A program made the translations under genes and the position numbers. A stretch of 64,000 nucleotides of DNA. Origin: an uncultured Chloroflexia bacterium (lineage in GTDB: Bacteria; Chloroflexota; Limnocylindria; Limnocylindrales; CSP1-4). The stretch lies in assembly GCA_963743855.1 (NCBI GenBank), contig CAVURK010000009.1:257956-321955 (forward strand), read 5' to 3'. Under the pieces are notes generated by a model. The model was not told where the DNA came from. It did no database searches and saw only the letters and a list, made by a program, of their open reading frames with translations. Shown here piece after piece: positions 37,367-64,000 of the stretch (position 1 is the first letter of the stretch; every line of letters starts with the position of its first letter).

Positions 37367-39359
37367 GTGGCCGCGCAGTTTCCCCACGTCTTCGAGCCGC
37401 TGACGCTCCGCCACAAGACGTTGCGCAGTCGGATCACGTTCGGGGCGCACACCGCGAACATGGCCGAGGACGGCCTCCCCGGCGAGCGCCACATCGGCTA
37501 CTACCGGGAACGCGCGCTCGGCGGCGCCGGGATGATCGTGGTCGAGCCCGTCCCGATCCATCGGACCGGCGTCCTGACCCGGGGCAACTTCCGCCACGAC
37601 GACGACGCGATCATCCCGGCGTTCCGCCGCGTCACCGACGCCTGCCGCGAGGCGAACCCCGACGTCGTGTTGATCCACCAGCTCTATCACGTCGGCCAGC
37701 ACGGGGACGCCGACAACTCGTTCGCGCCGAACTGGTCGCCGTCGGGGCTGCCCTCGTACCACGACGCCGATGGCAGCCACGCGATGACGACCGATGAGAT
37801 CGAGGAGCTGATCGGCGGGTTCGTGGCCGCCGCCGGCCGCGCCCAGGCGTCGGGCTTCGACGGCGTCGAGATCTTCGCCGCGTACCACGCGGTCGTGGAC
37901 CAGTTCTGGACGACCTGGTCGAACCGGCGCACGGACGAGTGGGGAGGCAGCTTCGAGAACCGGATGCGCTTCTCGTCCGAGATCCTGCGCCGGATCCGGG
38001 AGCGCTGCGGGGACGACTTCATCATCGGGCTGGCGATCAGCGCAGACCCCGGCTCGGAGGCCTTCCCGTCGATCGAGGAGCTCGCCGAGATCGTGGCCTG
38101 GCACGACGAGCGGCGGCTGATGGACTACGTGACCTGCGGGACCGGCTCGTACTTCGACTTCCACCAGATCATCCCGCCGTCGCTCTACCCGCAGCGGCTT
38201 GGCGAGCCGTTCGCGGCAGCGCTCAAAGCCGTCGTCCGGCATGCGCGGGTCCAGGCCGAGAGCCACATCCGGACGCCCGAGGCGGCCGAGGCGGTCCTCG
38301 CCGCCGGCCACGCCGACATGGTCAGCATCGTGCGAGGCCAGATCGCGGATCCGCACCTGGTCGCCAAGACCCGTGACGGCCGCGCCGACGAGGTCCGACC
38401 GTGCATCTCGTGCAACCAGCTGTGCTGGGGCCGCCGCTCACGCGACTACTGGATCTCGTGCCTGGTCAACCCGTCGGCCGGGCGCGAGTTCGCATGGGGA
38501 GGCGACCGGTTCGAGCCGGCGGCGACGCCGCGTCGGGTGCTGGTCGTCGGCGGCGGCCCCGCCGGGCTCGAGGCCGCGCGGGTCGCGGCGGAGCGCGGTC
38601 ACGCCGTGACACTCCTCGAACGCGGCGAGGCACTCGGCGGTCAATTCCGCCTCGCCGGGCGACAGCCGTCGCGCGACCAGATCACCGACCTGATCGCCTG
38701 GTTCGGGCGACGGCTCGATGCGCTCGGGGTCGAGGTCCGGCTCGGCGTGGAGGCGAGCGCGGACGAGGTGGCCGCCGCAGCCGCCGACGAGGTCATCGTC
38801 GCGACCGGGTCCCGGCCGGCACGCGCCGGTTTCCAGCGTGCGCTCCCGATGGTCGATCGGCTCCCCGGCGTGGATGGCGCCGACGTCTTCGCGATCCACG
38901 ACGTGCTGGACGGCACGGCCGAGCCGGGCCGGCGCGTCGTCCTCCTCGACGACCTCGGCGACTGGCGGGGTCTCGGGACGGCGCTCCACCTCGTCGAGCA
39001 CGGTCACGACGTGACGCTCGTCACCTCGGCGGCCGTCGTCGCGGGCGGCCTGTTCCACAGTGCGGCCGACGGACCCTTGCGCAAGCGATACGCGCTGGCC
39101 GGTGGCCGGTCGATCACCTCGGCGTCGATCGCGGGCTGGCGGGACGGCATCGCCCTGGTCGTCTCGTCGCCATCGGGCGAGATCACCAGCATCGCGGCAG
39201 ACGCCCTCGTCATCGCCGAGACGCCCGTTGCCGAGACCGGGCTGGCGAGCGCGCTCACCGGAACGTGGCATCGCCTTCCACCTGGTCGGGGACGCTGTCG
39301 CCCCACGGCGGGCCAGCCTCGCCTTCTTCGAGGGCCGCGAGCTCGCCCTTCGCCTCTGA
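37367..39359 (+). pseudogene. FMN (OYE-fold)/[4Fe-4S]/FAD-NAD(P) flavoprotein of the TMADH/2,4-dienoyl-CoA reductase/amine demethylase architecture, frameshifted at ~39260
   Basis: GTG 37367 lies 1 nt after the upstream stop. The OYE N-terminal domain contains GGAGMIVVEP...HQLYHVGQ. The Cys cluster is RPCISCNQLCWGRRSRDYWISCLVNP. The ADP-binding motif is VLVVGGGPAGLEAA. The C-terminus ERGIAFHLVGDAV... lies in the +1 frame. Confidence 0.85.
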
Positions 39360-39428
39360 ACTGCGCGGAGCGCCGTACCATGGGGGCGGCACGATCTCGG
39401 CGCTGGCGCCCGCACCCGAGGAGATCAG

Positions 39429-40976
39429 ATGGCGGTCCCGGACCTCGAACACCCCACGGTGCGGCGCGGCCGGGCCGCGCGCCAGACCGAGCGACTGGCA
39501 CGTCACATGGACACGCTGCCCTTCCTGACGAGGAAGCTGCCGCCGGTCGAAGTCATCGGGGTCGGCGGTCTCGAGCAGATCGAGGCCAACGCCGACACGC
39601 TCCTCGAGCAGGTCGGCATCGAGATCGTCAACTTCCCGGAGGCGACCGAGATCTTCCGCGGCGCCGGCGCGGATGTCGACGGCCAACGGGTCCGCTTCCC
39701 GCGCGGGATGTGCCGCTCCCTGGTCCAGGCCACGGCCCCCCGGATCTTCACCCAGCTCGCCCGCAACCCGGCGCGGAGCGTGGAGATCGGCGACCCGTAC
39801 ATGGTCCTCGTCCCGACCTATGGCTCGCCGTTCATCCACAACCTCGACGAGGGCCGCCGCTACGCGACGATCGAGGACTTCCGCAACTTCGTGAAGCTGA
39901 CGTACACGAGCCTGACCCTCCACCACGGCGGCGGGACGCTGTGCGAGCCCGTCGACCTGCCGGTCAACAAGCGCCATTTCGAGATGGTCTACAGCCACAT
40001 CCGCTACTCGGACCGGGCGTTCATGGGCTCGGTCACCCATCCGAGCCGAGCCCAGGACTCGGTCGAGATGGCGAGGATCGTGTTCGGGGCCGAGACCATG
40101 GAACGCGAGCACGTGATCATGGGCCTGGCCAACGCCAACTCACCGATGTCGTGGGACTTCAACATGCTCGGCTCGGCCAAGGTCTACGCCGAGAACAACC
40201 AGATCATGCTGATCACGCCGTTCATCCTCGGTGGCGCGATGGCCCCGGTGACGGTCGCGGCCCAGGCCACCCAGACGCTCGCCGAGGCACTCGCCGGGAT
40301 GGCGTTCTGCCAGATCGTCCGGCCTGGTGCGCCGGTCATCTTCGGGTCGTTCGCGTCCTCGATGTCGATGCAGTCGGGTGCCCCGACGTTCGGGACCCCC
40401 GAGCCGCAGCTGGTCCTGTTCGTGCTCGCCGCCCTCGCCCGCCGGCTCGGCGTCCCGTTCCGGAGCGGTGGCAACTTCACGGCATCCAAGCTGCCCGACT
40501 ACCAGGCCGCCTACGAGAGCGCCATCAGCTACATGGCCACGATGCAGGCGGGGGTCAACTTCAACCTCCACACCGCGGGCTGGCTCGAGGGCGGGCTGGC
40601 GATCGGCTACGAGAAGTTCATCCTCGACGAGGACCAGGCATCGATGACCGGCGCCTACGTCGGCGGCGTCGACCTGACCGACAACGGCTACGCCCTCGAC
40701 GCGATGCTGGCGGGCGGCCCCGGCCAGCATTTTCTGGGTTCGCCGCACACGCTGGCCAACTTCGAGAACGCCTTCTGGCGCTCCGAGATCTCCAACAACG
40801 ACAGCTTCGAGCAGTGGGAGATCGACGGCGGGCTCGATGCCGCCCAGCGGGCGAACGTCCGCTGGAAGCGCCGGCTCGCCGAGTACGAGATGCCGCCGCT
40901 CGACGAGGGGATCCACGAGGAGCTCCTCGACTGGCTGGGGCGGCGCAGGGCGAGCTTCCCCGATTCGGACGTCTAG
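39429..40976 (+). CDS. MttB-superfamily (trimethylamine methyltransferase family) protein without pyrrolysine: a putative quaternary-amine methyltransferase
   Basis: Intact 515-aa ORF with no in-frame TAG. Family blocks: ITPFILGGAMAPVT, RPGAPVIFGSFASSMSMQSGAPTFGTPE, AAYES and HTAGWLEGGLAIGYEKFILD. GAGGAG lies 5 nt before the ATG. Confidence 0.9.
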   Translation: MAVPDLEHPTVRRGRAARQTERLARHMDTLPFLTRKLPPVEVIGVGGLEQIEANADTLLEQVGIEIVNFPEATEIFRGAGADVDGQRVRFPRGMCRSLVQATAPRIFTQLARNPARSVEIGDPYMVLVPTYGSPFIHNLDEGRRYATIEDFRNFVKLTYTSLTLHHGGGTLCEPVDLPVNKRHFEMVYSHIRYSDRAFMGSVTHPSRAQDSVEMARIVFGAETMEREHVIMGLANANSPMSWDFNMLGSAKVYAENNQIMLITPFILGGAMAPVTVAAQATQTLAEALAGMAFCQIVRPGAPVIFGSFASSMSMQSGAPTFGTPEPQLVLFVLAALARRLGVPFRSGGNFTASKLPDYQAAYESAISYMATMQAGVNFNLHTAGWLEGGLAIGYEKFILDEDQASMTGAYVGGVDLTDNGYALDAMLAGGPGQHFLGSPHTLANFENAFWRSEISNNDSFEQWEIDGGLDAAQRANVRWKRRLAEYEMPPLDEGIHEELLDWLGRRRASFPDSDV

Positions 40977-41006
40977 GCCGCCGCGATCCAGCCGACCGAG
41001 CCCGAG

Positions 41007-43058
41007 ATGACCGCCGGCGATCCGCTGCTCCAGCCGTTCCAGCTGCGGCACCTCACGCTCCGCAACCGGATCATGAGCCCCAGCCATGAGCCGGCCTACG
41101 CCGAGGACGGCAAGCCCAAGCTCCGGTACCAGCTCTACCACGAGGAGAAGGCGAAGGGCGGCATCGCCCTGACGATGTTCGGTGGGTCCACGAACGTGGC
41201 GCCCGACTCGCCGCCGGTCTTCGGTCAGCTGTACGCGGGGGACGACGACATCATCCCGTGGTTCCGCCAGATGGCGGACCGGATGCATGCCCACGGCACG
41301 GCCACCATGGTCCAGCTGACCCATCTCGGGCGGAGGACCGTGGCAGACGATGGCGACTGGCTGCCGACGATCTCGGCGTCATCCGTCCGCGAGCCTGCCC
41401 ACCGGAGCTTTCCCAAGGAGATGGAGGAAGGCGACATCCGGCGCGTCGTCCGCTCCTTCGGAGCGGCGGCCCGTCGCTGCAAGGAGGGCGGCCTCGACGG
41501 CCTCGAGCTGGAGGCCTACGGCCACCTGATCGACCAGTTCTGGTCGCCTCTCGTCAATGCGCGGACGGACCGGTACGGCGGCTCGCTCGAGAACCGGATG
41601 CGCTTCTCCATCGAGGTGCTCGAAGCAGTCCGCAGGGAAGTCGGCGACGAGTTCATCGTCGGCATCCGGATGAGCGGAGCGGAGGACCTGCCGGGCGGCC
41701 TGACCGAGTCCGACTGTCTCGCGATCGCGACGGCCCTTTCGCGGACCGGGATGATCGACTTCATCAACGTCATCAAGGGTTCGATCGCGACCGACGAGGC
41801 GCTGTCCCACGTCATCCCGGGGCTCGGGACGCCGCTCGGGCCGGGCCTCGAGCTGGCCGGACGGTTCCGCGAGCGTCTCGACCTGCCGATCTTCCACGCC
41901 GCCCGGATCGCGGACGTCGCGACCGCTCGATACGCCATCGCCGAGGGGCTGGTGGACATGATCGGGATGATGCGAGCGCACATGGCCGACCCGCACATCG
42001 TCCGGAAGCTGGAGGCAGGGGAGGCGGACCGGATCCGGCCGTGCGTCGGGGCGTCGTACTGCCTCAACCGGATCTACGTCGGTCTCGACGGCCTGTGCAT
42101 CCACAACGTCGCGACCGGGCGCGAGGAGACCGTCCCGCAGCTCACGGTCCCGAGCACGGGTCCGCGCCGGACGGTCGTCGTCGTGGGCGCGGGGGCCGCC
42201 GGCCTCGAGGCCGCCCGGGTCGCGGCCGAGCGCGGCCATCGGGTCATCCTGGTCGAGGCGGCCTCGGATCCGGGCGGGCAGATCCGCCTCGCAGCGCGGG
42301 CGACTCCGAGGCACGCGGATCTCATCGGGATCGTCGACTGGCTCGTCGCGGAATGCCGGCATGCTGGAGTCGAGATTCGCTTCGACACCGTCGCCGACGT
42401 GGCCGACATTCTCGCCCTCGACCCGGACGTCGTGATCGTCGCGACCGGCGGAGTGCCACGGATGCCCGCCCTGACCGAGGGCGAGGACCTGGTCGTGAGC
42501 ACCTGGGACGTCATCGGCGGGGCGGTGACGCCGTCACGTGGCGAGGTCCTGGTGTTCGACGACCACGGCGCCGAGGCAGCGCTGTCGTGCGCCGAGCGGA
42601 TGGCCTCCTCGGGTTCGACGGTCGAGATCGTGACCCCCGACCGCCATGTCGGGCTCGAAGTGACCGGGACCGACTACCCGGCCTACCTCGCCGCGTTCTA
42701 CGCCGCGGGCGTCCGGCTGACCACCGATCACCGGGTGGTCGCCGTGCGCCGGACCGCGGACCGCCGCCTCGAGGTCGACCTGCAGAGCGATTACACCTCA
42801 ACGACGACGCATCGCGTGGTCGACCAGGTCGTCGTCGAGCACGGGACCGTGCCGAACAGCGAGCTCTACCTCGGCCTGCGTCCCGGGTCGTCGAACGGCG
42901 GCGAGCTCGACCTCGACGCGTATCTCGCCGGTCGGCCGCAGACGCTCATGGTCGACGACGCGGGCACTTACCAGCTGTTCCGGATCGGTGACGCAGTCGC
43001 GAGCCGGAACATCCACGCCGCGATGTACGAGGCACGACGCCTCGCGATGGCGCTGTGA
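41007..43058 (+). CDS. DgcA/StcD-like FMN+FAD flavoprotein (N-methyl amino acid demethylase family)
   Basis: Intact 683 aa. The OYE domain contains KGGIALTMFGG and VQLTHLGR. Also present: RPCVGASYCLNRIYVGLDGLCIHN and VVVVGAGAAGLEAARVAAERGH. The length and architecture match StcD/DgcA-type demethylases. Confidence 0.85.
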   Translation: MTAGDPLLQPFQLRHLTLRNRIMSPSHEPAYAEDGKPKLRYQLYHEEKAKGGIALTMFGGSTNVAPDSPPVFGQLYAGDDDIIPWFRQMADRMHAHGTATMVQLTHLGRRTVADDGDWLPTISASSVREPAHRSFPKEMEEGDIRRVVRSFGAAARRCKEGGLDGLELEAYGHLIDQFWSPLVNARTDRYGGSLENRMRFSIEVLEAVRREVGDEFIVGIRMSGAEDLPGGLTESDCLAIATALSRTGMIDFINVIKGSIATDEALSHVIPGLGTPLGPGLELAGRFRERLDLPIFHAARIADVATARYAIAEGLVDMIGMMRAHMADPHIVRKLEAGEADRIRPCVGASYCLNRIYVGLDGLCIHNVATGREETVPQLTVPSTGPRRTVVVVGAGAAGLEAARVAAERGHRVILVEAASDPGGQIRLAARATPRHADLIGIVDWLVAECRHAGVEIRFDTVADVADILALDPDVVIVATGGVPRMPALTEGEDLVVSTWDVIGGAVTPSRGEVLVFDDHGAEAALSCAERMASSGSTVEIVTPDRHVGLEVTGTDYPAYLAAFYAAGVRLTTDHRVVAVRRTADRRLEVDLQSDYTSTTTHRVVDQVVVEHGTVPNSELYLGLRPGSSNGGELDLDAYLAGRPQTLMVDDAGTYQLFRIGDAVASRNIHAAMYEARRLAMAL

Positions 43059-43721
43059 CTACCGGAACGAGATGACGAGCAGGACCAGCGAGAGCGCCAG
43101 AAGGCAGGCGGCCAGCACGGCGGGCAGGACGATCCGGATCGTCAACGATCGCAATCGACTGCCCCCGAAACGCATCCGGTAGTCGGCGTCGAGGGCGAGC
43201 ATGTCCGCCATCGAGCGGATCGGCCGCGGGTCACCGTGGACCGACCGCAGTCGCATCGATCCGGCTCTGTGCGCGTCGACTGCATCGGCGATCGTGGTCG
43301 GGACGATCCGCACCTGGAGACGTGACTGGTCCGTCGGACTCCCGATGGGATGGATGGTGCCGAGCCACATGCCGTCCTCCCAGGCCGAATAGATCCCGGT
43401 CAGGGGAACGCCACCCAGGCCGCCGGCAAGGATCGCGTACGACTCTGCGTCGTCGGCAGCCATGATCCATGCAAAGCGTTCCCCGACAGGAAGATCCAGG
43501 CTGGTCTCACCCAGCTCCCGATAGCCCGCCTCGGTGAGCAGCGCCTGACGATCGCGGATCCCGGCGGGCGCTGCCGGTGCGCGACCCGTCGCGTCGCGCT
43601 GGCGGCGACGCCCGGTGCCTGCGTAGATCTGCCAGCTGCGCACCGCACCCGGACCGAGCCTGAGAAGGAGGATGCCCGACACGATCGCAAGCAACAGAGC
43701 CACGATCCGTTCGATCGGCAT
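43059..43721 (-). CDS. Hypothetical membrane protein (N- and C-terminal TM helices)
   Basis: Intact ORF with TM segments IVALLLAIVSGILLL and IVLPAVLAACLLALSLVLLVI. Its stop abuts the convergent flavoprotein stop. Confidence 0.5.
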   Translation of the reverse strand: MPIERIVALLLAIVSGILLLRLGPGAVRSWQIYAGTGRRRQRDATGRAPAAPAGIRDRQALLTEAGYRELGETSLDLPVGERFAWIMAADDAESYAILAGGLGGVPLTGIYSAWEDGMWLGTIHPIGSPTDQSRLQVRIVPTTIADAVDAHRAGSMRLRSVHGDPRPIRSMADMLALDADYRMRFGGSRLRSLTIRIVLPAVLAACLLALSLVLLVISFR

Positions 43722-43745
43722 GCACCGAATCCTCCTCAGCGCCGG

Positions 43746-44438
43746 TCAGGCGACGGGCCGCTCGTAGATCGCGAGCTGCCAGATCAACGTCGTGCGGTGC
43801 ATCCGTTTCACGAGGCCATGCGCCGCGAGGATGTCATCGACGTCGACAGTGCGATGCACGTAGACGCGGAAGGGTGAACGGACGATGCGGAACCTGGCGT
43901 TCAAGAGCGTGGTGCCGAGCCGGCCGAACCACGAGTCGCGAGGATAGATGAGGCCGAATCGCCGGCGCGCGAGGGTCGCCGAACGACCGACCAGCGACGC
44001 CATGTCCGCGTAACAGCAGACGACGCGATCGAGCGCGACGAGGTCCGCCGTCTGGATCTCGTCTGCAAGCGCGACGAAGTCGCCGGTGACGTATCGGACA
44101 CGATCGCCGTGGCCCTGCGCCTCCGCTTCCTCGCGCGCTACGGCGATGTAGGCACGAGACGCATCGACATCGACTGCGGACGCTGCTCCCGCCAGCAACA
44201 GTCCGAGGTGGACCGCACCGACGCCGGCGCCGATGTCGAGCACGGTATTCCCGTCGACGCCGCCAGCAGCGAGCCCATCGATCAACGCCCTCGTCAGACC
44301 CATCGGGCCATTCTCGCGGTAGGCGCGAAGCTGCCTCGCGGCGTGGCGGTCGTCGAACTGATGGTCGAGCGGGGAGTCGCCGGGCGAGCAGCAATCCATC
44401 TCAACGATCGTAGCAGCAGGTCGGCTGCGGCCGACCAC
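43746..44438 (-). CDS. Class I SAM-dependent methyltransferase
   Basis: Motif I VLDIGAGVGAV and post-I VDVDAS. The start could be GTG 44438 or ATG 44399. Confidence 0.7.
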   Translation of the reverse strand: MVGRSRPAATIVEMDCCSPGDSPLDHQFDDRHAARQLRAYRENGPMGLTRALIDGLAAGGVDGNTVLDIGAGVGAVHLGLLLAGAASAVDVDASRAYIAVAREEAEAQGHGDRVRYVTGDFVALADEIQTADLVALDRVVCCYADMASLVGRSATLARRRFGLIYPRDSWFGRLGTTLLNARFRIVRSPFRVYVHRTVDVDDILAAHGLVKRMHRTTLIWQLAIYERPVA

Positions 44439-44447
44439 GCAACCTCG

Positions 44448-46553: not shown

Positions 46554-47440
46554 TCGTTGAGCACCGATTGCAGGCTGTCGGCGATGAGGTTGACCGCGAT
46601 GACCGTGCTGGCGATGGCCAGCGCCGGGAAGAGGGTCGGCCACCAGATCCCGGAGATCATGTTCGTGTATTCCTGGCTGACGCTGAGGCCCCAGTCGGGC
46701 GATGGCGGCTGGAGGCCGACGCCGAGGAACGACAGGGTGGCGACGGTGAAGATCGCGTAGCCGAAGCGGACCGTCATCTCGACGACCGTCGGCCCAAGGA
46801 CATTCGGGAAGATCTCGCGCGACAGGATGAACAAGCCCGACTCGCCGCGCAGCTTGGCCGCGGTCACGTAGTCGAGCTCACGCTCGGACAGGACCGCCGA
46901 ACGCACCGTCCGGGCGACGATCGGCGTGAACAGGATCCCGACGACCGCCACCACGACGAGTGGCGAGGTGCCGAGGACGACGAGCGTCAGCAGGGCGACG
47001 AGGACGACCGGCAAGGCCAGGAAGGCCTCGATGATCCGGCCCAGGACGTCATCGACCTTCCCGCGGTAGTAGCCCATCGTCAGCCCGAGGAGGGTTCCGC
47101 ACGTCACGCCGAGGAGTGCCGCCAGCGGAGCCACGATCAGCACGTCCCGCGAGCCGACCATCACTCGCGACAGGACGTCGCGCCCGATCCGGTCCGTTCC
47201 CATCCAATGCTCCGGGCTCGGCGGCAGGTGTCCCGTGGTGAAGTAGTTGAACGGGTCGTACGGCGTGATCCGCTGGCCGAGGACCGCGCAGATGATCCAG
47301 CCGATGATGATGATGTTGCCGATGATGAACGCCGGGCGGTGGAGCAGGAGCCGGATGGTCTCGCGGCGCGCCTGCGACCGCTCCGAGACGGGTGCTGCCA
47401 CGGTGGGTCCGAGCGGGGTCGGCTCGACGATGACGTCCAT
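46550..47440 (-). CDS. Opp/Dpp-type ABC transporter permease (DppC-like)
   Basis: Starts at the internal ATG (MDVIVEP...), overlapping the upstream stop as TGATG. Contains the HWMGTDRIGRDVLSR motif and six TM segments. Confidence 0.9.
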   Translation of the reverse strand: MDVIVEPTPLGPTVAAPVSERSQARRETIRLLLHRPAFIIGNIIIIGWIICAVLGQRITPYDPFNYFTTGHLPPSPEHWMGTDRIGRDVLSRVMVGSRDVLIVAPLAALLGVTCGTLLGLTMGYYRGKVDDVLGRIIEAFLALPVVLVALLTLVVLGTSPLVVVAVVGILFTPIVARTVRSAVLSERELDYVTAAKLRGESGLFILSREIFPNVLGPTVVEMTVRFGYAIFTVATLSFLGVGLQPPSPDWGLSVSQEYTNMISGIWWPTLFPALAIASTVIAVNLIADSLQSVLNE

Positions 47441-48393: not shown

Positions 48394-48425
48394 GCCCCCA
48401 CCAAAGCGGGCCGCGCGACGTCAGG

Positions 48426-48451
48426 CATGGGGCGCTGGCTGGCGCCCCATG
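48426..48451 (-). other. Intercistronic 10-bp perfect stem-loop between the SBP and permease genes
   Basis: CATGGGGCGC-tggctg-GCGCCCCATG lies in the 68-nt gap downstream of the SBP stop (48462). Confidence 0.5.
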
Positions 48452-48461
48452 CCGTGGTCGT

Positions 48462-50199: not shown

Positions 50200-50320
50200 C
50201 GTCCTAGTTCCTCCGGGCGAGACCACCTGACGGCGACGAGCACCTTTGACGGCATCGATCGCGAATGCACCACGCCGCCCGGACACCGATTCCTCCAGCC
50301 GGGCAACGGGATGTCTCGGA

Positions 50321-50382: not shown

Positions 50383-50385
50383 CAC

Positions 50386-55403: not shown

Positions 55404-56961
55404 ATGGACACGACGGCGGGCGAAGGGCTCCGTCGTCGCCGGGGTGGCGGCCGCGAGGGCCATGCCCGGAACGCCGCCCCACAGCAACCGCCGTGGGCGC
55501 AGCCGCGGATGCGCTACCGGCCGACGGAGATCATCTCGGCCGATGAGCTCGAGTCGATCCATCTCGGCTCGCTGCGGGTCCTGTCCGAGATCGGGATGGA
55601 CTTCCTCGACGCCGATGCGCGCGAGGTCCTGCGCGCGGCCGGGGCGCAGACTCGAGCCCGATTCGCAGCGGGTTCGATTCGACCCGGCGATGGTCACCGA
55701 GCTGATCCGGACGGCGCCGGCGAGCTTCACCCTCCACGCCCGCAACCCGGCCTATGACGTCCAGCTGGGCGGCGACTGGGTCGCGTTCGGGACCGTCGGC
55801 AGCCCGCCCAACGTGTCCGACCTCGATCGCGGCCGACGGATCGGCAACCGGGCCGACTACCAGAACCTGTTGCGGATCGCCCAATCGCTCAACGCCATCC
55901 ACTTCCTGTCGGGCTACCCGGTCGAGCCGGTCGACCTCCACCACGGCGTCCGTCACCTGTGGGCCACCTACGACGCGCTGACCCTGATGGACAAGGCGAT
56001 CCATTGCTACAGCCTCGGCCGCCAGCGCAACGTCGACGTGCTCGAGATGGTCCGCATCGCCCGCGGCGTGGACGCCGCGACGATCGACCGCGAGCCGTCG
56101 GTCTTCACGGTCGTCAACTCGAGCTCGCCGCTCCGGCTCGATGCGCCGATGCTGCAGGGGATCATGGAGTTCGCGGCCCACAACCAGGTCGTGTGCATCA
56201 CGCCGTTCACCCTCGCCGGGGCGATGGCTCCGGTCACCCTCGCCGGCGCGCTCGTCGAGCAGAACGCCGAGGCACTGGCCGGGATGGTCCTGACCCAGGC
56301 GGTCAATCCCGGGGCGCCGGTGATCTACGGCGGCTTCACCTCGAACGTCGACATGCAGTCGGGTGCGCCCGCGTTCGGGACCCCGGAGTACATGCGGACT
56401 GCGATGATCGGCGGCCAGCTCGCCCGGCGCTATGGCGTGCCGTATCGGTCGTCGAACGTGTGCGCTGCGAACGCGCTCGACGCGCAGGCCGCCTACGAAT
56501 CGGTCTTCTCGCTGTGGGGCGCGATCATGGGCGGTGTCAACCTGCTGATGCACGGCGCCGGCTGGATGGAGGGCGGACTCCACGCCAGCTACGAGAAGAT
56601 GATCCTCGACGCCGAGCTGCTCGGGATGGTCGCCTCGTTCCTCGACCCGGTCGTCGTCGACGAGGAGACCGTCGCGTACTCCGCGATGCAGGAGGTCGGA
56701 CCGGGCGGCCACTTCTTCGGCGCCGAGCACACCCAGTCGCGCTACCGCACTGCGTTCCACAAGCCGATGCTCAGCGACTGGCGCAACTACGAGACCTGGG
56801 AGGAGGCGGGCTCGCCCGAGCTGCCGGCCAAGGCCAACCGGATCTGGAAGGAGCTGCTCGCGGCCTACGAGCCGCCGCCGATGGACCCGGCGATCCACGA
56901 GGAGCTCGAGGCGTTCGTCGCGCGCCGCGTCGCCGAGGGCGGCGTCCCGACCGACTATTGA
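55404..56961 (+). pseudogene. Second MttB-superfamily protein without pyrrolysine, frameshifted at ~55649
   Basis: The N-terminus MDTTAGEGLRRRRGGGREGHARNA...YRPTEIISADELESIHLGSLRVLSEIGMDF...AAGAQ lies one frame off from LEPDSQRVRFDPAMV.... Blocks ITPFTLAGAMAPVT, NPGAPVIYGGFTSNVDMQSGAPAFGTPE and HGAGWMEGGLHASYEKMILD are present. There is no in-frame TAG. Confidence 0.85.
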
Positions 56962-56989: not shown

Positions 56990-59458
56990 ATGAAGTCTTC
57001 GGCCCAGGTCGTGGTCATCGGCGGAGGCGTCGTCGGTGCCAGCGTGCTCTACCACCTGACGAAGGCCGGCTGGACCGACGTCATGCTGCTCGAGCGCCGC
57101 GAGCTGACGGCCGGATCGACGTGGCATGCCGCGGGCGGGATGCACACCCTCAACGGCGACCCGAACGTCTCCAAGCTCCAGCAGTACACGATCAAGCTGT
57201 ACGAGGAGATCGAGCGGATCTCCGGCCAGGACTGCTCGATCCACCTGCCCGGCGGGCTGATGCTGGCCGACACCGAGGTCCGGATGGACTTCCTGCGGAT
57301 GGCCGTCGCGCGCGGCCGCTATCTCGGGATGGACCTCGAGCTGATCAGCGCCCGGGAGGCAGCGGACCTCTTTCCGTTGATGGATCCGCAGTACTTCGTC
57401 GGGGCGCTGTACGACCCGGTCGAGGGCCACGTGGACCCGACCGGTGTCACGCGCGCGTACGTGAAGTGTGCCCAGCTGGCCGGCGCGGAGGTCCACCAGC
57501 ACACGCCGGTCGTCGGGCTGTCGCAACGCGCCGACGGGACATGGGACGTGCGAGTGGAGTCGGGCGACGTCATCCACGCGGAGCACGTCGTCAACGCCGG
57601 CGGACTGTGGGCGCGCGAGGTCGGGCGGATGGTCGGCATCGAGCTGCCGGTCCTCGCCATGGAGCACATCTACCTCATCACGCAGGACATGCCCGAGGTG
57701 GCCGCCCACGTCGCCTCCACCGGCCACGAGATGCCGATGGCGCTCGACTTCGGCGGCGAGATCTACATCCGCCAGGAGGGCGGGGCCATGCTGCTCGGCA
57801 CGTACGAGCAGGCCTGCGTCCCGTGGTCGCCGCGCGAGACGCCGTGGGACTTCGGGTCGCAGCTCCTCAAGCCGGACATGGATCGGATCACGCCGGAGCT
57901 CGAGGTCGCCTTCCGGCACTACCCGGCGATGGGTACGACCGGGATCCGCCGCATCGTCAACGGGCCGTTCACGTTCTCACCTGATGGGAATCCGCTCGTC
58001 GGCCCGGTTCGCGGCCTGCGCGGCTTCTGGGTCGCCTGCGGGGTGATGGCCGGGCTGTCGCAGGGCGGCGGCGTCGGGCTCGCACTGGCGACGTGGATGA
58101 CCGCCGGCGATCACGGCGACTCGGGGATGGATGTCTGGGCGATGGATGTCGCGCGCTACGGCGACTACGCGACGCTCGCCTATACGAACGCCAAGGTCCA
58201 GGAGAACTACCGGCGTCGGTTCCGGATCACCTTCCCGAACGAGGAGCTGCCGGGCGCCCGGCCGCTGCTCACGACGCCGATCTATGACCGGCTGACCGCG
58301 GCCAACGCGGTCTGGGGCGCGACCTTCGGCCTCGAGCATGCGCTCTGGTTCCAGGAGCCTGGTCTCGAGCCCAAGGAGGACGTGACGTTCCGGCGGTCGA
58401 ACGCGTGGTCGCAGGTCGCAGCGGAGGTCGCGGCGGTCCGCGAGCGGGTCGGCATGACCGAGATCTCCAACTACGCCAAGTACCGGGTGACCGGTCCGGG
58501 CGCCGAGGCATGGCTCTCGTCGCTGCTGACCGCGCGGATGCCGGCCCCCGGCCGGATCACGCTGACCGCGATGCTCAATGACGCCGGTCGGATCGTCGGC
58601 GAGTTCACGGTCGCGCGTGCATCCGAGGCCGATGAGTACTTCCTGTTCGGGTCACTGCCCGCCGAGGTCCACCACTCGCGCTGGTTCCGCCACCATCTGC
58701 CGGCCGACGGCTCGGTGCGATTCGAGGTCCTGGGGCTTGGCCTGGTCGGGCTGTCGGTGGCCGGGCCGCGATCGCGCGACGTGCTCCAGGCGGTCGCACC
58801 CGACCTGGACCTGTCGACCCAGGCGTTCCCGTTCATGACCTTCCGCCAGGTCGACCTGGGCATGACGCCCGTCCACCTGGCCCGCATCAACTACGCCGGC
58901 GACCTCGGCTACGAGCTGTGGGTGAGCCCCGAATACCAGCGCGAGCTGTTCGATCGGATCGTTGCCGCGGGCGAGCCCCACGGCCTTCGGCTCTTCGGCA
59001 TGCGGGCGCTGATGTCGCTCCGCCTCGAGAAGTCGTATGGGACGTGGTTCCGCGAATACCGGCCGATCTACACGCCGCTCGAAGGCGGGATCCCGCGCTA
59101 CCTGAAGCTCGACCACGAATTCATCGGGCGCGCGGCGCACGAGGCGGAGGCAGCGGCAGGTGGCCCCGCCCGGCGGCTCGTCGCGTTCGTCGTCGACCCG
59201 GACCCGGACGACCCGGCCGATGTCATCGGCGACGAGCCGATCTGGCATGACGAGGCGGTCGTCGGCTGGGTGACCTCCGGCGGGTACGGGCATCACGTCA
59301 AGCAGTCGATCGCGCTGGGATACGTGCCGACCGAGCTCGCCACCCCGGACGGTCCCGGCGGGAGCGGCTTCGAGATCGAGATCATCGGGCGGCGACGTCC
59401 GGCGCGGCTCCAGCCCGAGCCGTTGTTCGACCCGGGTGGTCTCCGGATGCGCGCGTGA
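56990..59458 (+). CDS. Dimethylglycine/sarcosine dehydrogenase-family enzyme (FAD oxidoreductase fused to a GcvT folate-binding domain)
   Basis: Intact 822 aa. Contains VVVIGGGVVGASVLYHL and GSTWHAAGG (covalent-FAD His context). The C-terminal aminomethyltransferase-like domain contains YAGDLGYELW and LRLEKSY. Confidence 0.9.
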   Translation: MKSSAQVVVIGGGVVGASVLYHLTKAGWTDVMLLERRELTAGSTWHAAGGMHTLNGDPNVSKLQQYTIKLYEEIERISGQDCSIHLPGGLMLADTEVRMDFLRMAVARGRYLGMDLELISAREAADLFPLMDPQYFVGALYDPVEGHVDPTGVTRAYVKCAQLAGAEVHQHTPVVGLSQRADGTWDVRVESGDVIHAEHVVNAGGLWAREVGRMVGIELPVLAMEHIYLITQDMPEVAAHVASTGHEMPMALDFGGEIYIRQEGGAMLLGTYEQACVPWSPRETPWDFGSQLLKPDMDRITPELEVAFRHYPAMGTTGIRRIVNGPFTFSPDGNPLVGPVRGLRGFWVACGVMAGLSQGGGVGLALATWMTAGDHGDSGMDVWAMDVARYGDYATLAYTNAKVQENYRRRFRITFPNEELPGARPLLTTPIYDRLTAANAVWGATFGLEHALWFQEPGLEPKEDVTFRRSNAWSQVAAEVAAVRERVGMTEISNYAKYRVTGPGAEAWLSSLLTARMPAPGRITLTAMLNDAGRIVGEFTVARASEADEYFLFGSLPAEVHHSRWFRHHLPADGSVRFEVLGLGLVGLSVAGPRSRDVLQAVAPDLDLSTQAFPFMTFRQVDLGMTPVHLARINYAGDLGYELWVSPEYQRELFDRIVAAGEPHGLRLFGMRALMSLRLEKSYGTWFREYRPIYTPLEGGIPRYLKLDHEFIGRAAHEAEAAAGGPARRLVAFVVDPDPDDPADVIGDEPIWHDEAVVGWVTSGGYGHHVKQSIALGYVPTELATPDGPGGSGFEIEIIGRRRPARLQPEPLFDPGGLRMRA

Positions 59459-60696
59459 CCATCGCGATCCGCTGCGGCAGCCTCATCGACGTCGAGGCCG
59501 GAAGCACTGCCGCCGACCGGATCATCCACGTCGACGATGCCGGCCGGGTCACAGGTATCGGCACCGGTTCGGATGGGGTCCCGGACGGGGCCGTTGTCGT
59601 CGACTTGTCGGGGCTGAGCGTCTTGCCCGGGCTGATCGACACGCACACCCACCTCGTCGGCGACATCCAGACAGCATTCGTCCCCTCGGTCACGACCTCG
59701 GCCGCGGAGGAAGTCCTGGTCGGAGTCCGCCATGCCCGGCAGACGCTCGAGGCTGGGTTCACGACCGTCCGCGACCTCGGGTCGTTCCGGGCCTTCACCG
59801 ACTGCGCCCTGCGCGACGCGATCGACCGCGGCGACGTCATCGGCCCGCGGATGCGCTGCGCGGGCGCCTTCATCACCGCGCCGTGGGGCGGCGGCGATGT
59901 CGTCGGACTGGCGCGGGACGTCACCCTGCCCGAGGACCTTCGGTTCGGTGTCGTCCGGTCGCCAGACGAGGTGCGCGAGCGGGTCCGTCGGCTCCTCATC
60001 GGCGGCGCGGACGTCATCAAGTGCATCGGGACCGGGGCAGTGCTGACTCGCGGTGGCGTCCCGGGCGCGCCGGAACTCTCCGCGGCCGAGCTCCGGGCGG
60101 CCGTCGAGGAAGCTGCCTGGTACGGCGCGTTCGTCGCCGTTCACGCCCATGCCGCCGAAGGAGCCAAACGGGCGATCCGGGCAGGCGTCCGATCCGTGGA
60201 GCACGGGTCATACCTCGACGCCGAGGCGATCGCGATGCTCGCCGACACCGGGACGTACTTCAGCGTCGACCTGTATGACGGGGAGTGGGCGCTCGAGCAC
60301 GGCGCCCTGGAGGGCTGGCCTGCCGAGACCATGCGCAAGCTCGAGGAGTCGCAGGTCGGCGCGGAGGCCGTCGTGCGTTCAGCGGTCGAACAGGGTGTCC
60401 GGATCGTCTTCGGGACGGACAGCGGCGTCTACCCGCATGGCTTGAACGCCCGCCAGTTCGCCTGGTATCTCCGCTGCGGGATGTCGCCGCTCGCGGCGAT
60501 CCGGAGCGCCACGGTCGTCGCGGCGGACTGCCTCGGCTGGGCCGATCAGGTCGGGACGCTCGCGCCCGGACGGTTCGCCGACCTGGTCGCGGTCGACGGT
60601 GACCCACTGTCGGATCCGACCATTCTCGAACGGCCCGTCGTCGTCGCGAAAGGCGGCTCCGTCGTCATCGAGCGACGCCGAGACCGCGCGGCATGA
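59455..60696 (+). CDS. Amidohydrolase-superfamily metallohydrolase
   Basis: GTGA overlap with the upstream gene. Contains PGLIDTHTHL, VAVHAHA, SVEHG and the FGTDSGV metal-ligand pattern. Confidence 0.85.
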   Translation: MTIAIRCGSLIDVEAGSTAADRIIHVDDAGRVTGIGTGSDGVPDGAVVVDLSGLSVLPGLIDTHTHLVGDIQTAFVPSVTTSAAEEVLVGVRHARQTLEAGFTTVRDLGSFRAFTDCALRDAIDRGDVIGPRMRCAGAFITAPWGGGDVVGLARDVTLPEDLRFGVVRSPDEVRERVRRLLIGGADVIKCIGTGAVLTRGGVPGAPELSAAELRAAVEEAAWYGAFVAVHAHAAEGAKRAIRAGVRSVEHGSYLDAEAIAMLADTGTYFSVDLYDGEWALEHGALEGWPAETMRKLEESQVGAEAVVRSAVEQGVRIVFGTDSGVYPHGLNARQFAWYLRCGMSPLAAIRSATVVAADCLGWADQVGTLAPGRFADLVAVDGDPLSDPTILERPVVVAKGGSVVIERRRDRAA

Positions 60697-62953
60697 CTGC
60701 CGAGGTCGGGCTCGGGGCCGACGCCGCCACCATCGACGGGCGAATCGTCGTCGACGGGTCGCCGGTCGCGTTCGAGGCGGGGGACTCGGTCGCCGTCGCG
60801 ATCCTCCGGGGCGGGAAGGTGCCGGGGCGCGGCGGGACGCTGTGCCTGGCCGGCGACTGCGGGAACTGCCTCGCCGAGGTCGATGGCATCTCCTACCTCA
60901 GGACGTGCCAGACCGCGGCCCGACCGGGGTTGCGAGTCGTGCGGCATCCCGCTGGCGCGAACCCGCCACTCCCAGTTGTGGCCGCCACGGACCTGACGGC
61001 GACGCCGCTCGCGACGACCGTGCCGCTGCACCACCTCGAGATCGATGTCGCGGTGATCGGCGGCGGTTCGAGCGGGCTGGCCGCGGCCGCCGAGGCAGAA
61101 CGGGCGGGCAAGCGCGTGCGCGTCCTGGATGCGCATGCGGGCGAGGAGGTCGTCGCCATCTACGCCGGCCCGATGATCGTGGTCCGAACCGCGCACGGCA
61201 TGCTCCACGTCCATCCACATGAGATCGTCATCGCCACGGGGGCGGCGGAGATCCACCCGGTCGTTCCAGGCAATCGACTGGCCGGGATCGTGACAGCACG
61301 AGCCGCCCAGAAGCTGCACGCGGCAGGTGTGGAACTCGGTCGGGTCGTCGCAGTCGGCACGGCCCCCGCCGGCGTCCCGGCGACCTCGGTCGGCGGACTG
61401 ACTCGTCCGCTTCGAAGGTGAGGACGGCCGGGTTCAGGCGGTCGTCACCGCGGATCCCGCGACGGGCGCCGAGACGACCACCTCAGCCGACACCGTCGCG
61501 GTCGGCCTCGGCCTGGCCCCGCGCGATCTCCTTGCCCGGATGGCCGGCGAGGTGCCCGTCACCGTGGTCGGCGACGCGGCCACCGAACAACCCCTTCCTC
61601 CTCCACCGACCGACGGCGTCGTCTGCGGCTGCATGGGCACGACCGTCGCCGATCTCGCCGACGCGTGGGACCGTGGCTTCACCGAGCTCGAGCTGCTCAA
61701 GCGAGCCAGCCAGGCCTGTCTCGGCACGTGCCAGGGCGGTGCCTGCCTGCCGCAGGTCCGCTCCTGGATCGCCGCACGGACCGGCGAGGTGCCCGCGCCG
61801 TTCACTGCCCGGCCCGCCTCGCGCCAGATCACGCTCGCCGAGGCCGCCGCCGACGGCTACGTCGACGCATTCCGTCGGACCCCGCTCCACGACGAGCATC
61901 TCGCGGCGGGCGCCCGGATGGACCGGTTCGGTGGCTGGTGGCGGCCGTGGCATTACGGCGATGCCGTGTCGGAATACTGGGCGGTCCGCGAGGGCGTCTC
62001 GATCGGCGACGTGTCGACGCTCGGCAAGCTGGTCGTCTCCGGGCCTGACGTCGTCGAGCTCCTGGAGCGCCTCTACCCGTGCCACGTGGCGGACATCAAG
62101 CCCGGGCGCTCGCGCTACGCGCTCCTCCTGAACGAGCGCGGCCACGTGATGGACGACGGCATGATCCTGCGCGAGAGCGAGACGCGGTTCGTCCTGTCGT
62201 TCACGTCCGGTGGCGCCGCGAATGCCGAGATGTGGCTGCGCGACTGGATCGAGGTCTGGGGCCTCCGCGTCCATGTCCTCGACCGGACGATGTCGCTCGC
62301 CGCGATCAACGTGACGGGGCCCCTGGCACGGAAGCTGATGATCCGAGCCGGCGTTGCCGAGCCGCCTCGGTTCCTCGGGCATCTCCACGCGGACGTCGCC
62401 GGCGTCCCGTGCCACGTCATGCGCCTGTCGTTCACGGGCGAGGCGGCCTTCGAGCTCCACCACCCGGTCGATCGCTCGGTCGAGCTATGGCGCGCGCTCC
62501 TCCACCTCGGCGCCGACCTCGGGATCCGGCCGCACGGCCTCCAGGCCCTGTTCGGGTGTCGGCTCGAGAAGGGCCACGTCATCATCGGGATGGATACCGA
62601 GCTCGACACGACGCCGCGCCGTCTCGGGATGGACTGGGCGGTGCGGATGGAGAAGCCGCGCTTCATCGGCCGCGGCGTCGCTCGAACGGACGGCGAAGCT
62701 GCCCGATGAGCGACGCTGGCTCGGCTTCTCGATGGACGGTCAGGCGCCAGCCGAGGGAACGCCGATCTGGAGCGGCGGCGACGTGGTCGGCAACGTGACG
62801 GGGAGCTGGACCTCCCCGCTGCTCGGGAAGGCGCTGATGCTCGGCTGGCTGCGGCGGACGCCGTTCCCGGAACGGGTCGAGATCGATGGTCGCGAGGCGG
62901 TCGTCACGCCGACGCCGTTCTACGACCCGGAGGGCCTCCGTGCCCGCGCTTGA
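60693..62953 (+). pseudogene. soxA: Sarcosine-oxidase-alpha-like subunit with a Cys-containing N-terminal 2Fe-2S-type domain, two +1 frameshifts (~61401, ~62677)
   Basis: ATGA overlap with the upstream gene. Contains CLAGDCGNCLAEVDG...C, VAVIGGGSSGLAAA, the BFD-like CGCMGTT...CLGTCQGGAC, and a GcvT domain (HLAAGARMDRFGGWWRPWHY...GDVSTLGK...LRLEKGH). The segments lie in three successive frames. Confidence 0.85.
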
Positions 62954-63314
62954 GCCGTTGCATGGACTGCGGGTCGTCGCCGATCCGGCGGCGCTCGACG
63001 CCGCGCGCTGGGGCGGCACCGACGTGACCGTGCTCCGCCTCGCGCCCGATGACGCGTTCGCGATCGGGGCCGATGGTGTCGACGTCGACGACGCCGACGC
63101 GATCGTCGAATCGGAGGTCGGCTTCTCGGGCGGCTGGGTCGCCATCGAGGAGGTCGCTCATCACGTCGAGTGGTCGATCCCCGTCGAGCGCCCGGTCCTC
63201 GCCCAGGGATCGATCGCGAGCGTGCCCGCCAAGCTCTGGCTCCCCGACGATCGCGAGGCACTCCTCCTCACCGCCACCGCGTACGCGGACGAGCTCGCGA
63301 GTCGCCTCCGATGA
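62940..63314 (+). CDS. soxG: Sarcosine-oxidase-gamma-like small subunit
   Basis: It sits between the soxA-like and soxB genes, and the GTG start overlaps the end of soxA. The sequence VLRLAPDDAFAIG...AQGSIASVPAKLW is consistent with the SoxG family. The start (62940 or TTG 62958) is uncertain. Confidence 0.6.
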   Translation: MPALEPLHGLRVVADPAALDAARWGGTDVTVLRLAPDDAFAIGADGVDVDDADAIVESEVGFSGGWVAIEEVAHHVEWSIPVERPVLAQGSIASVPAKLWLPDDREALLLTATAYADELASRLR

Positions 63315-64000
63315 GCGCATACACCGACACGCTCCCCGAGATCCGCTGGCCCGACGCGCCGAAACGGAGCTACGACGTCGTGATCATCGGCGGCGGCGGG
63401 CACGGGCTCTCGACCGCGTACTACCTGGCGACCCGCCACGGGATCACCAACGTGGCCGTCCTCGAGGCCGACTACATCGCGTCGGGCAACACCGGCCGGA
63501 ACACGACGATCATCCGTGCCAACTACGGCATCCCGGAGGCGATCCGCTTCTACCAGCACTCCCTCGAGCTGTACCAGGGTCTCGAGGCGGAGACCGGCGC
63601 CGAGATCCTCCACCAGACCAAGGGCATCTTCTGGATCGCCCATACCGAGATGGCGATGCGCACTGAACGCGCGCGCTGCCTGATGAACACGGCCTGCGGC
63701 GCGAAGACGTTCATGGTCACCCCCGCCGAGCTCAAGGAGATGGTCCCGCAGGTCGACCTCACCGGTGGCGGCCGGTATCCGGTGCTCGGTGCCTCGCACC
63801 ATGTCGAGGGTGCGACGGCCCGGCACGACCGGGTCGCGTGGGCGTTCGCATCGGGCGCCGCCGCGCGCGGCGTCGACATCGTCCAGCACACGCCGGTGAC
63901 CGGCCTCCTTCGCGACGGCGAGCGCGTGGTCGGCGTCGAGACCGCCGGCGGCCCGATCGCCGCGGGTGTCGTCCTGTCTGCGGTCGGTGGCAGGGTGACC
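63311..64000 (+). CDS. soxB: Sarcosine oxidase beta subunit (FAD-dependent), 3' end beyond the window
   Basis: Absent from the ORF track because no stop lies in the window. ATGA overlap with soxG. Translation gives MSAYTDTLPE...YDVVIIGGGGHGLSTAYYLATRHGITNVAVLE...SGNTGRNTTIIRANY. Confidence 0.9.
   Translation, partial: MSAYTDTLPEIRWPDAPKRSYDVVIIGGGGHGLSTAYYLATRHGITNVAVLEADYIASGNTGRNTTIIRANYGIPEAIRFYQHSLELYQGLEAETGAEILHQTKGIFWIAHTEMAMRTERARCLMNTACGAKTFMVTPAELKEMVPQVDLTGGGRYPVLGASHHVEGATARHDRVAWAFASGAAARGVDIVQHTPVTGLLRDGERVVGVETAGGPIAAGVVLSAVGGRVT

Follow-up and report, generated by a model that had tools for sequence, protein, structure and literature searches.

The last 27 kb of the 64-kb stretch of contig CAVURK010000009.1 analysed here (from an uncultured Chloroflexia bacterium of the Limnocylindrales; the whole stretch, with a guanine plus cytosine (GC) content of 70%, is referred to as the window) encode two proteins of the MttB superfamily, MttB1 and MttB2, amidst genes for flavoproteins, an importer and dehydrogenases. 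This region is probably a chromosomal two-module catabolic cluster for betaine-type quaternary amines, in which both MttB proteins would be B12-dependent via a corrinoid core encoded elsewhere in the genome. By analogy, module 2 (55404 to beyond the window end) may be regarded as a new-phylum representative of the aerobic glycine betaine pathway linked to MtgBCD, and module 1 (37367-53019) as an uncharacterised variant. A first-pass annotation, made from the letters of the sequence, had read the missing corrinoid partner as a sign of either an undescribed hybrid route or a corrinoid-independent role of MttB proteins. The missing partner, however, almost certainly does not point to new chemistry, and ordinary B12 carrier proteins are almost certainly used. 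Genes were called by third-position GC bias, domains were assigned with Pfam and equivalogs with NCBIfam. By Pfam, all genes listed in the first-pass annotation are indeed present where it had placed them or close by. The genes of the two modules, with the old yellow enzyme type of flavoprotein abbreviated as OYE, are the following:

37367-39359, plus strand: flavoprotein A, with Oxidored_FMN (176 bits) and Pyr_redox_2 domains (Pfam); frameshift near 39257
39429-40976, plus strand: MttB1, 515 aa, an uninterrupted open reading frame (ORF); PF06253 positions 2-500 of 500, 683 bits
41007-43058, plus strand: flavoprotein B, same architecture as flavoprotein A (OYE/FMN and FAD/NAD; Pfam)
44448-50199, minus strand: Opp/Dpp-type ABC importer as a whole (Pfam)
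44448-46553, minus strand: fused double ATPase of the importer (ABC_tran twice, oligo_HPY)
46550-47440 and 47440-48393, minus strand: two permeases of the importer (BPD_transp_1)
48421-50199, minus strand: binding protein of the importer (SBP_bac_5); C-terminal frameshift
50362-51495, plus strand: enolase-superfamily enzyme of MR/MLE type (MR_MLE_C, 168 bits, and MR_MLE_N)
51492-53019, plus strand: NAD(P)-dependent aldehyde dehydrogenase (Aldedh, 569 bits for the frame-corrected protein); frameshifts near 52506, 52610 and 52854
55404-56961, plus strand: MttB2; PF06253 positions 1-500 of 500, 665 bits after frame correction
56990-59458, plus strand: DMGDH/SARDH-type FAD dehydrogenase with tetrahydrofolate (THF)-binding GcvT domain (DAO, FAO_M, GCV_T, GCV_T_C)
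60693-62956, plus strand: SoxA-like alpha subunit of about 750 aa (Fer2_4, FAD fold, BFD, SO_alpha_A3, GCV_T, GCV_T_C); frameshifts near 61398 and 62677
62940-63314, plus strand: SoxG-like small subunit, named by position only, no Pfam match
63311-64000, plus strand, cut by the window end: SoxB-like beta subunit (FAD, DAO family; DAO)

Both MttB clades are linked to a B12 core in relatives of this cluster. A genome scan with MttB1 yielded 268 relatives and a metagenome scan with MttB2 at least 547, and 80 loci from each scan were compared with the window, the related genome and metagenome contigs being labelled with L-numbers. In ten of 80 loci (L064, L066, L068, L071, L073, L075, L076 and L078-L080), all from Acidimicrobiia, Actinomycetota or unclassified bacteria, MttB1 orthologues with 72-78% identity are located in corrinoid operons comprising, in this order, GntR, a corrinoid protein (B12-binding and B12-binding_2), DUF1638, PF13769, Pterin_bind, RACo/RamA, MttB, MTHFR and IclR. 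Divergently to the Acidimicrobiia-type operon lie a DMGDH-like gene and ETF genes; the genes beside this operon gave no clue to the substrate. Orthologues of MttB2 with 76-77% identity occur on contigs L109 and L147, where the whole module is 76-82% identical to that of the window and follows the order OpuAC-type betaine ABC importer, MttB2, DMGDH, SoxA-G-B-D, IclR, corrinoid protein, DUF1638, PF13769 and Pterin_bind. In L134, RACo, MTHFR and FTHFS (formate-THF ligase) are found upstream of the same MttB2 cluster. Hence, close orthologues of both MttB proteins sit in operons with corrinoid protein, DUF1638, pterin methyltransferase, RamA and MetF, which speaks against the corrinoid-independent role put forward in the first-pass annotation. 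A corrinoid/MtgA pair elsewhere in the genome, named there as what would make this an ordinary split system, is thus seen in relatives.

Three indirect lines of sequence evidence point to the presence of such a core in Limnocylindrales themselves. Using z-score TETRA with labelled controls, by which Limnocylindrales (55 of 55; mean 0.906, minimum 0.813) and Acidimicrobiia (9 of 9) were separated, contigs L109 and L147 gave a tetranucleotide correlation of 0.85 to the Limnocylindrales mean versus 0.57-0.66 to the Acidimicrobiia mean, and still of 0.80 versus 0.57-0.66 after the homologous genes had been left out. The neighbour-joining tree of MttB2 places L109, L147 and L134, which form one clade, between the clade of the window and the one containing the labelled Limnocylindrales locus L032. 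Additionally, the core-bearing ENA contig L173, named in the style of the close relatives' contigs (175 kb, GC 0.724, tetranucleotide correlation 0.891 versus 0.618) carries IclR, MtgC, DUF1638, Pterin_bind, RACo, a third MttB paralogue and a MetF-like gene; this paralogue is about 67% identical to MttB1, and the MtgC of L173 is 91% identical to that of L109. At the same time, the best 120 matches to the Acidimicrobiia MtgC are all Acidimicrobiia-like and the top matches to corrinoid query P0269 come from Anaerolineae or Caldilineales, none in either set being labelled Limnocylindrales. Other corrinoid loci (L083, L084, L087, L088, L091 and L092) were discarded owing to other contexts or a non-Limnocylindrales signature. 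Probably a single core operon accompanies one paralogue, and the remaining MttB genes are placed beside substrate-specific enzymes.

Two observations on these operons may be added. A PF13769 ('Virulence_fact') protein of about 105 aa is encoded between DUF1638 and the pterin methyltransferase in all four loci checked, Acidimicrobiia-type as well as Limnocylindrales-like (L066:6715-7029, L080:6751-7065, L109:15928-16248 and L147:16961-17311); the available passages of Mausz et al. 2025 do not mention it, and it could be a component that has gone unrecognised. Furthermore, in L084:80-5402 (68% GC) an enolase-superfamily gene, not close to that of the window, immediately precedes genes for RamA, corrinoid protein and S-methyl_trans, representing a second case of the enolase superfamily beside a corrinoid system.

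MttB1 and MttB2, which share about 40% identity, both contain the full-length PF06253 domain of the MttB superfamily, and neither MttB1 nor the frame-corrected MttB2 displays an in-frame UAG. In agreement with this pyrrolysine-free nature, the equivalog TIGR02369 of pyrrolysine-type MttB scores 227 and 320 bits for the two proteins at a cut-off of 525. The closest solved structure to MttB1 is that of Sinorhizobium meliloti 4YYC ('putative trimethylamine methyltransferase'; 610 bits, end-to-end alignment), for which no established substrate could be found and which thus gives no functional transfer. Anaerobic quaternary-amine methyltransferases, namely MtgB of Desulfitobacterium hafniense and MtpB, MtcB and MtyB of Eubacterium limosum, likewise belong to the superfamily with a full-length, pyrrolysine-free domain, but are more distant from MttB1 (366 and 341 bits, the former for MtgB structures 2QNE/9YCE). 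The substrate-binding residues of D. hafniense MtgB are Y97, R312, H348 and F356, with R312 and H348 acting as carboxylate ligands (PMC13080624). Y97, R312 and H348 are kept in MttB1, whereas Gly takes the place of F356, a Trp being found four residues upstream, a change which 4YYC shares with MttB1 in its AGWLEGG motif and which can also be read from the GAGWMEGG motif of MttB2. The kept carboxylate ligands fit a carboxylate-bearing (betaine) quaternary amine, and the altered aromatic cage would leave the specificity open. A further difference to the anaerobic MtgB/MtpB-type systems concerns the fate of the methyl group, which in an aerobe would be expected to enter THF-linked oxidation instead of acetogenesis or methanogenesis; the neighbouring genes here are oxidative.

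It has to be considered whether the MttB proteins could act without any corrinoid protein, handing the methyl group straight to THF or some other carrier, perhaps as a complex with the Fe-S flavoproteins and in a lineage truly devoid of MtgC, MtgD and RamA; for MttB1, this would be a new reaction mode of the superfamily in aerobes. Such a mode could draw on the tight gaps between MttB1 and the OYE flavoprotein genes (30-70 bp) and on their pairing, as an orthologue of flavoprotein A directly precedes MttB1 in 44 of the 80 genome loci. The changed F356 would suit it as well, and so would the fact that no Limnocylindrales locus has a corrinoid gene closer than 10 kb. It is highly improbable nonetheless: at 72-78% identity to orthologues inside complete corrinoid operons a changed catalytic mechanism is not to be expected, the same Gly/Trp motif occurs in 4YYC, and Limnocylindrales-like contigs have the core beside MttB2 or the third paralogue. 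Moreover, hand-over of the substrate simply explains the adjacency of the flavoproteins, and the MttB-superfamily literature examined reports no corrinoid-independent member. A substrate specificity of MttB1 that is new to the superfamily has about even chances and is far likelier than corrinoid independence.

For B12-dependent MttB proteins with an unlinked core, precedents exist in aerobic bacteria. According to Mausz et al. 2025 (PMC12478193), the pfam06253 proteins SPO2108 and SPO2134 of the aerobe Ruegeria pomeroyi rise on glycine betaine, and the unlinked MtgC (SPO2160) and MtgD (SPO1863) are essential for both glycine betaine use and methionine synthesis, with RamA, DUF1638 and a MetF paralogue as further parts of the system. 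The same study describes genetic and proteomic evidence for this route, up to seven pfam06253 genes per genome, and genes for dimethylglycine and sarcosine demethylation which are often located nearby. In Phaeobacter inhibens, mtgB1-4 are accompanied by a single mtgC and mtgD, and knock-out data are available for mtgB1 and mtgC (bioRxiv 10.64898/2025.12.19.695462). Since an unlinked core has thus been published in aerobes, a missing adjacent corrinoid gene is normal for such a route. The premise of the first-pass annotation that pyrrolysine-free MttB homologues are known from anaerobes alone is out of date in view of R. pomeroyi and P. inhibens. Its hybrid route, with MttB taking the first methyl group and flavoprotein/THF-type demethylases the rest, still gives the best reading; yet it can no longer be called undescribed, having been published for Ruegeria/Phaeobacter in 2025.

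The cluster shares with the MtgBCD(E) system of Ruegeria/Phaeobacter, as described there, a pfam06253 protein for the first demethylation in an aerobe, a core which can be unlinked and common to several paralogues, RamA, DUF1638 and a MetF paralogue as further components, and the often co-located DMGDH-type and sarcosine-oxidase genes. In contrast, the present organism is a soil member of the Chloroflexota (Limnocylindrales) and not a marine proteobacterium, the core is not seen in the window, and module 1 has additional genes with no place in the described system, namely those for the Opp-like importer, the two OYE/Fe-S flavoproteins, the aldehyde dehydrogenase and the enolase-family enzyme. 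The combination of MttB with OYE flavoproteins, Opp-like importer, enolase-family enzyme and aldehyde dehydrogenase was not found in the literature searched. Annotations of mttB/mtgB in Limnocylindria metagenome-assembled genomes (MAGs) have already appeared in surveys (PMC11264602), and KEGG orthology (KO) lists from the Limnocylindria literature include K14083 and K00548, without being decisive. By analogy with Ruegeria/Phaeobacter, MtgC, pterin-binding MtgD, RamA/RACo, DUF1638 and MetF would be encoded once elsewhere in the genome and be common to all MttB paralogues.

Several observations weigh against this explanation. Genes for corrinoid protein, pterin methyltransferase, RamA and DUF1638 are all missing from the 64-kb window: the B12-binding motif (DxHxxG...SxL...GG) is absent from all six frames, tblastn with corrinoid, pterin-methyltransferase, RamA, DUF1638, S-methyltransferase and MetF queries against the window gave nothing, and no corrinoid-system gene is visible among the inspected upstream genes. 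Likewise, corrinoid-core genes are missing up to a distance of 10 kb from MttB1 in about 60 Limnocylindrales loci, and also downstream of soxB in the two closest relatives (L081 and L082). As the core was found neither in the window nor near MttB1 and soxB of these relatives, we can only infer its presence in this genome. L109, L147, L134 and L173 look like Limnocylindrales by tetranucleotide signature, GC content and gene phylogeny, not by marker genes. In both MttB proteins, as described above, the F356 of MtgB has become Gly, with a Trp four residues upstream. Substrate assignments are weak, since no gene of the cluster passes an NCBIfam equivalog cut-off. To our knowledge, the betaine systems of D. 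hafniense and E. limosum contain no counterpart of the Opp-type importer or the enolase-family gene, nor do the betaine pathways of Mausz et al. 2025 (PMC12478193) with which the cluster was compared. The first-pass annotation was nonetheless right that the window holds no B12-binding, pterin-binding, RamA or Rieske gene (six-frame motifs, tblastn and Pfam); the Rieske motif (CxH-x15-20-CxxH) gave no match in six frames of the 64-kb window and no Rieske domain was among the Pfam results. A search with Rfam for riboswitches also ended with zero matches in the window and six related loci.

With regard to the nature of the core, MttB1 and MttB2 might instead draw their corrinoid partner from a split methionine synthase, borrowing its B12 module (MtgC, MtgD and MtgE with RamA), which is a variant of the explanation favoured here, as only the core used differs. 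This mechanism has been published in aerobes (PMC12478193; bioRxiv 10.64898/2025.12.19.695462), and K00548 is present in KO lists of Limnocylindria genomes (PMC13212565 supplement). Two loci, L089:6011-11585 and L090:4616-11570, display a split-methionine-synthase-like set of divergent Pterin_bind, RamA with Fer2 domain, DinB_2, corrinoid protein and S-methyl_trans. Both derive from ENA assemblies with ERZ accessions near, and contig naming as in, those of the close relatives L081 and L082, and their type of corrinoid protein bears names from Anaerolineae/Caldilineales, i.e. Chloroflexota. Their contigs, which are large, have a lower GC content (0.65), however, and a borderline Limnocylindrales-like signature (0.80-0.81), while the core-bearing, Limnocylindrales-like L109, L147 and L173 are of the catabolic type, in which DUF1638, PF13769 and MetF are present but S-methyl_trans is not. 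Borrowing of this kind is possible, but rather unlikely.

Returning to the cluster itself, its gene order is conserved among relatives and both MttB genes are under strong purifying selection. Relatives of MttB1 with 80-95% identity come from soil MAGs, dozens in number and many based on long reads, that bear the label Candidatus Limnocylindrales, Chloroflexia or Chloroflexota; L003, L006 and L038 are among the closest, with 94-95% identity. Those with 72-78% identity are from Acidimicrobiia and Actinomycetota, and the exact MttB1 sequence of the window yielded no entry when looked up. Counting a neighbour in genome loci as conserved at ≥50% identity and ≥50% coverage, flavoprotein B is retained in 17 of 80, the divergent Opp-type importer after MttB1 in 50-61 of 80 and the enolase-family gene in 29 of 80 genome loci, the latter also in 24 of 80 metagenome loci. 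In relatives, the enolase-family gene is followed by that for the aldehyde dehydrogenase, in some cases by the ABC1 kinase, and then by MttB2 and DMGDH. In metagenome loci, neighbours of MttB2 are DMGDH, which follows it (51 of 80), SoxA (40 of 80) and SoxB (28 of 80). The upstream flank of the window (glycosyltransferase, membrane protein and sulfite-oxidase-like gene) corresponds to the commonest flanking families in relatives (28-32 of 80 loci), and the window end is not the end of the cluster, as about 2-3 kb more in L081 and L082 lead to soxD and an Fe-ADH gene before unrelated genes start. The region, which the first-pass annotation had called an island, is no mobile or compositional one: its GC content is flat, and synteny and housekeeping flanks recur in dozens of Limnocylindrales genomes.

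Two further loci deserve mention with respect to distribution. Locus L048 (DATLVO010000367.1), labelled Verrucomicrobiia, carries MttB1, Opp importer, enolase-family gene and MttB2 at 77-87% identity, which is probably a binning error. On low-GC (48-53%) metagenome contigs (L159-L163, L166, L171 and L172), relatives of MttB2 with 69-70% identity are encoded, and in the two that were mapped (L160 and L163) the relative adjoins two DMGDH-type genes and an Opp-type ATPase; the MttB/DMGDH pairing thus extends across very different genomes, whatever the substrate.

Decay of the MttB genes had been named in the first-pass annotation as a possible refutation of its proposal, and a reading as relics, with MttB2 frameshifted and the B12 core lost, could invoke the single inserted base of MttB2 near 55650 and the many frameshifts elsewhere in the cluster. 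At least 11 single-base frameshifts were counted in 27 kb (39257, about 48540, 52506, 52610, 52854, 54241, 54392, 55032, 55650, 61398 and 62677), i.e. about one per 2.5 kb, but no in-frame stops or deletions are found and codon bias is normal. The coordinates 55404-56961 given for MttB2 in the first-pass annotation do hold a full-length PF06253 protein, although they span a frameshift: one base is extra near 55650, and removing one leaves no internal stop. Intact 518-aa MttB2 orthologues occur in short-read contigs L093 (96% identity) and L096, from which the window differs by this single extra base, and in the related assembly L081, with contigs named in the same way, MttB2 and DMGDH carry frameshifts that differ from those of the window. 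On account of these differing frameshifts and intact ORFs, the frameshifts look like assembly errors of the unpolished long-read type and not like gene decay. In addition, the ratio of non-synonymous to synonymous substitution rates (dN/dS) against close relatives that likewise lack a linked core is 0.09-0.11 for MttB1, whose ORF is intact, and 0.06-0.15 for MttB2. With these values, the relic or pseudogene reading was rejected and is barely conceivable. Further frame breaks are present upstream, e.g. in a glutamine-synthetase-like gene near 7557-9058 and a permease ending near 34750, and automatic gene calls on this contig can be expected to be fragmented.

Turning to function, MttB2 in module 2 would most likely move one methyl group from glycine betaine or a similar betaine onto corrinoid Co(I), whereupon the DMGDH-type enzyme and the SoxA-G-B(-D) oxidase would take the other two as methylene-THF. 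Glycine betaine is the most economical substrate for this module because of the betaine-type importer seen in L109/L147 together with three demethylases. The oxidase resembles heterotetrameric sarcosine oxidase SoxBDAG in its DAO-type beta subunit, its GcvT/THF alpha subunit, a small gamma-like ORF and SoxD (in relatives, beyond the window end). The SoxB-like protein matches the NCBIfam soxB family with 235 bits on the partial protein, and a conserved ORF of 129-130 aa between soxA and soxB in L109, L147 and L134 occupies the SoxG position. Differences lie in the order, which is A-G-B-D here, in an N-terminal 2Fe-2S (Fer2_4) domain and in the length of the alpha subunit: whereas SoxA usually has about 1000 aa, that of the window has about 750 aa and its intact orthologues in L109 and L147 have 743-753 aa.

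In module 1, a carboxylate-bearing quaternary amine would be imported by the Opp-like ABC system and lose its first methyl group to MttB1 in the same B12-dependent manner. The resulting tertiary or secondary amine may then be demethylated oxidatively by one or both OYE/Fe-S flavoproteins, and the carbon skeleton be processed by the enolase-family enzyme and the aldehyde dehydrogenase. The architecture of OYE barrel, Cys cluster and FAD/NAD domain is that of DgcA (Pseudomonas dimethylglycine demethylase), StcD (S. meliloti N-methylproline demethylase), trimethylamine dehydrogenase (TMADH), histamine dehydrogenase and 2,4-dienoyl-CoA reductase, and the position beside an enzyme producing a tertiary amine would fit a demethylase role. 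Flavoprotein A has the OYE-type FMN domain, the canonical C-x2-C-x3-C-x11-C 4Fe-4S motif and the FAD/NAD(P) domain, i.e. the domains and four Cys of the DgcA/StcD/TMADH group. In flavoprotein B the domains are there, yet one of the four Cys of that group is missing. Near residue 345 its pattern is C-x5-C-x12-C with the second Cys gone, a change kept in all orthologues checked (L002, L003, L010, L012, L015 and L051), and it may hold another cluster or none. In the PDB ranking it resembles amine dehydrogenases or demethylases no more than it does enoyl- or aryl-CoA reductases (naphthoyl-CoA reductase 212, dienoyl-CoA reductase 203, TMADH 146 and histamine dehydrogenase 143 bits), a comparison that does not cover DgcA and StcD, which have neither a structure nor an NCBIfam model. 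The best NCBIfam model for the flavoproteins is a mycofactocin-associated OYE, below cut-off, and no DgcB or ETF partner for them is encoded in the window. The enolase-family enzyme shows weak matches (about 100-112 bits) to a galactarolactone-cycloisomerase-like protein and acid-sugar dehydratases in PDB and NCBIfam. For this enzyme, a role as HpbD-type (hydroxy)proline betaine epimerase was rejected, there being no betaine epimerase among the matches at E ≤ 1e-20. Nearest to the aldehyde dehydrogenase are the NCBIfam models of PuuC and betaine-aldehyde dehydrogenase, both below cut-off.

Some of these likenesses would also suit a module 1 that does not serve a quaternary amine, with another methyl donor for MttB1 and a peptide- or opine-like substrate. 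The family 5 binding protein is nearest to nickel, opine and peptide binders among NCBIfam models, the amidohydrolase to Xaa-Pro dipeptidase (431 bits versus a cut-off of 500), and the enolase-family enzyme resembles acid-sugar dehydratases as stated. However, all these NCBIfam matches fall below cut-off, the amidohydrolase is absent from all relatives, and the carboxylate ligands by which MtgB binds betaine are kept in MttB1. Moreover, an Opp-like importer for a betaine is known in Prb, which imports proline betaine in S. meliloti. Finally, the pyrrolysine-free MttB members named in PMC12478193 and PMC13080624 all act on quaternary amines. A peptide- or opine-like substrate is hence quite unlikely, and a betaine-type quaternary amine is retained for module 1.

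The remaining genes of the region are these:

43059-43721, minus strand: 220-aa ORF between flavoprotein B and importer, no Pfam match
43746-44399, minus strand: S-adenosylmethionine (SAM)-dependent methyltransferase, also between flavoprotein B and importer
53632-55341: ABC1/UbiB-type atypical kinase between the two modules, three frameshifts
59455-60696, plus strand: amidohydrolase-superfamily enzyme (Amidohydro_1)

The SAM-dependent methyltransferase and the 220-aa ORF are absent from all 80 related genome loci, so that 43059-44399 appears to be a lineage-specific insertion. The amidohydrolase found no match in any of 160 related loci (80 genome and 80 metagenome), and its membership of the pathway is doubtful because of this lack of conservation. 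The ABC1 kinase occurs at the same position in only a few relatives (L013, L035, L081, L093 and L114), and what looks like a 96-aa 'gene' at 55051-55341 probably represents the membrane segment at the C-terminus of the kinase. Further upstream, a PaaABC-like phenylacetyl-CoA oxygenase cluster, enoyl-CoA hydratases, 3-hydroxyacyl-CoA dehydrogenase and thiolase were recognised by eye from translations (17591-19532 and 14273-22389); this gene set, which has no relation to the two modules, fits an aerobic lifestyle.

If the proposed explanation is true, no new kind of chemistry is opened on present evidence and the remaining novelty is modest, but the B12-dependent MtgBCD route with oxidative demethylases would not be a marine proteobacterial trait only. 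It would be strongly conserved and very common in Limnocylindrales, as reflected by the numbers of MttB1 and MttB2 relatives. An mttB annotation in such MAGs would then no longer have to be read as anaerobic methylotrophy, and cobalamin supply would become a control point for the turnover of betaines and osmolytes in soil. At the same time, module 1 constitutes a defined and widespread candidate for a new substrate of the MttB superfamily.

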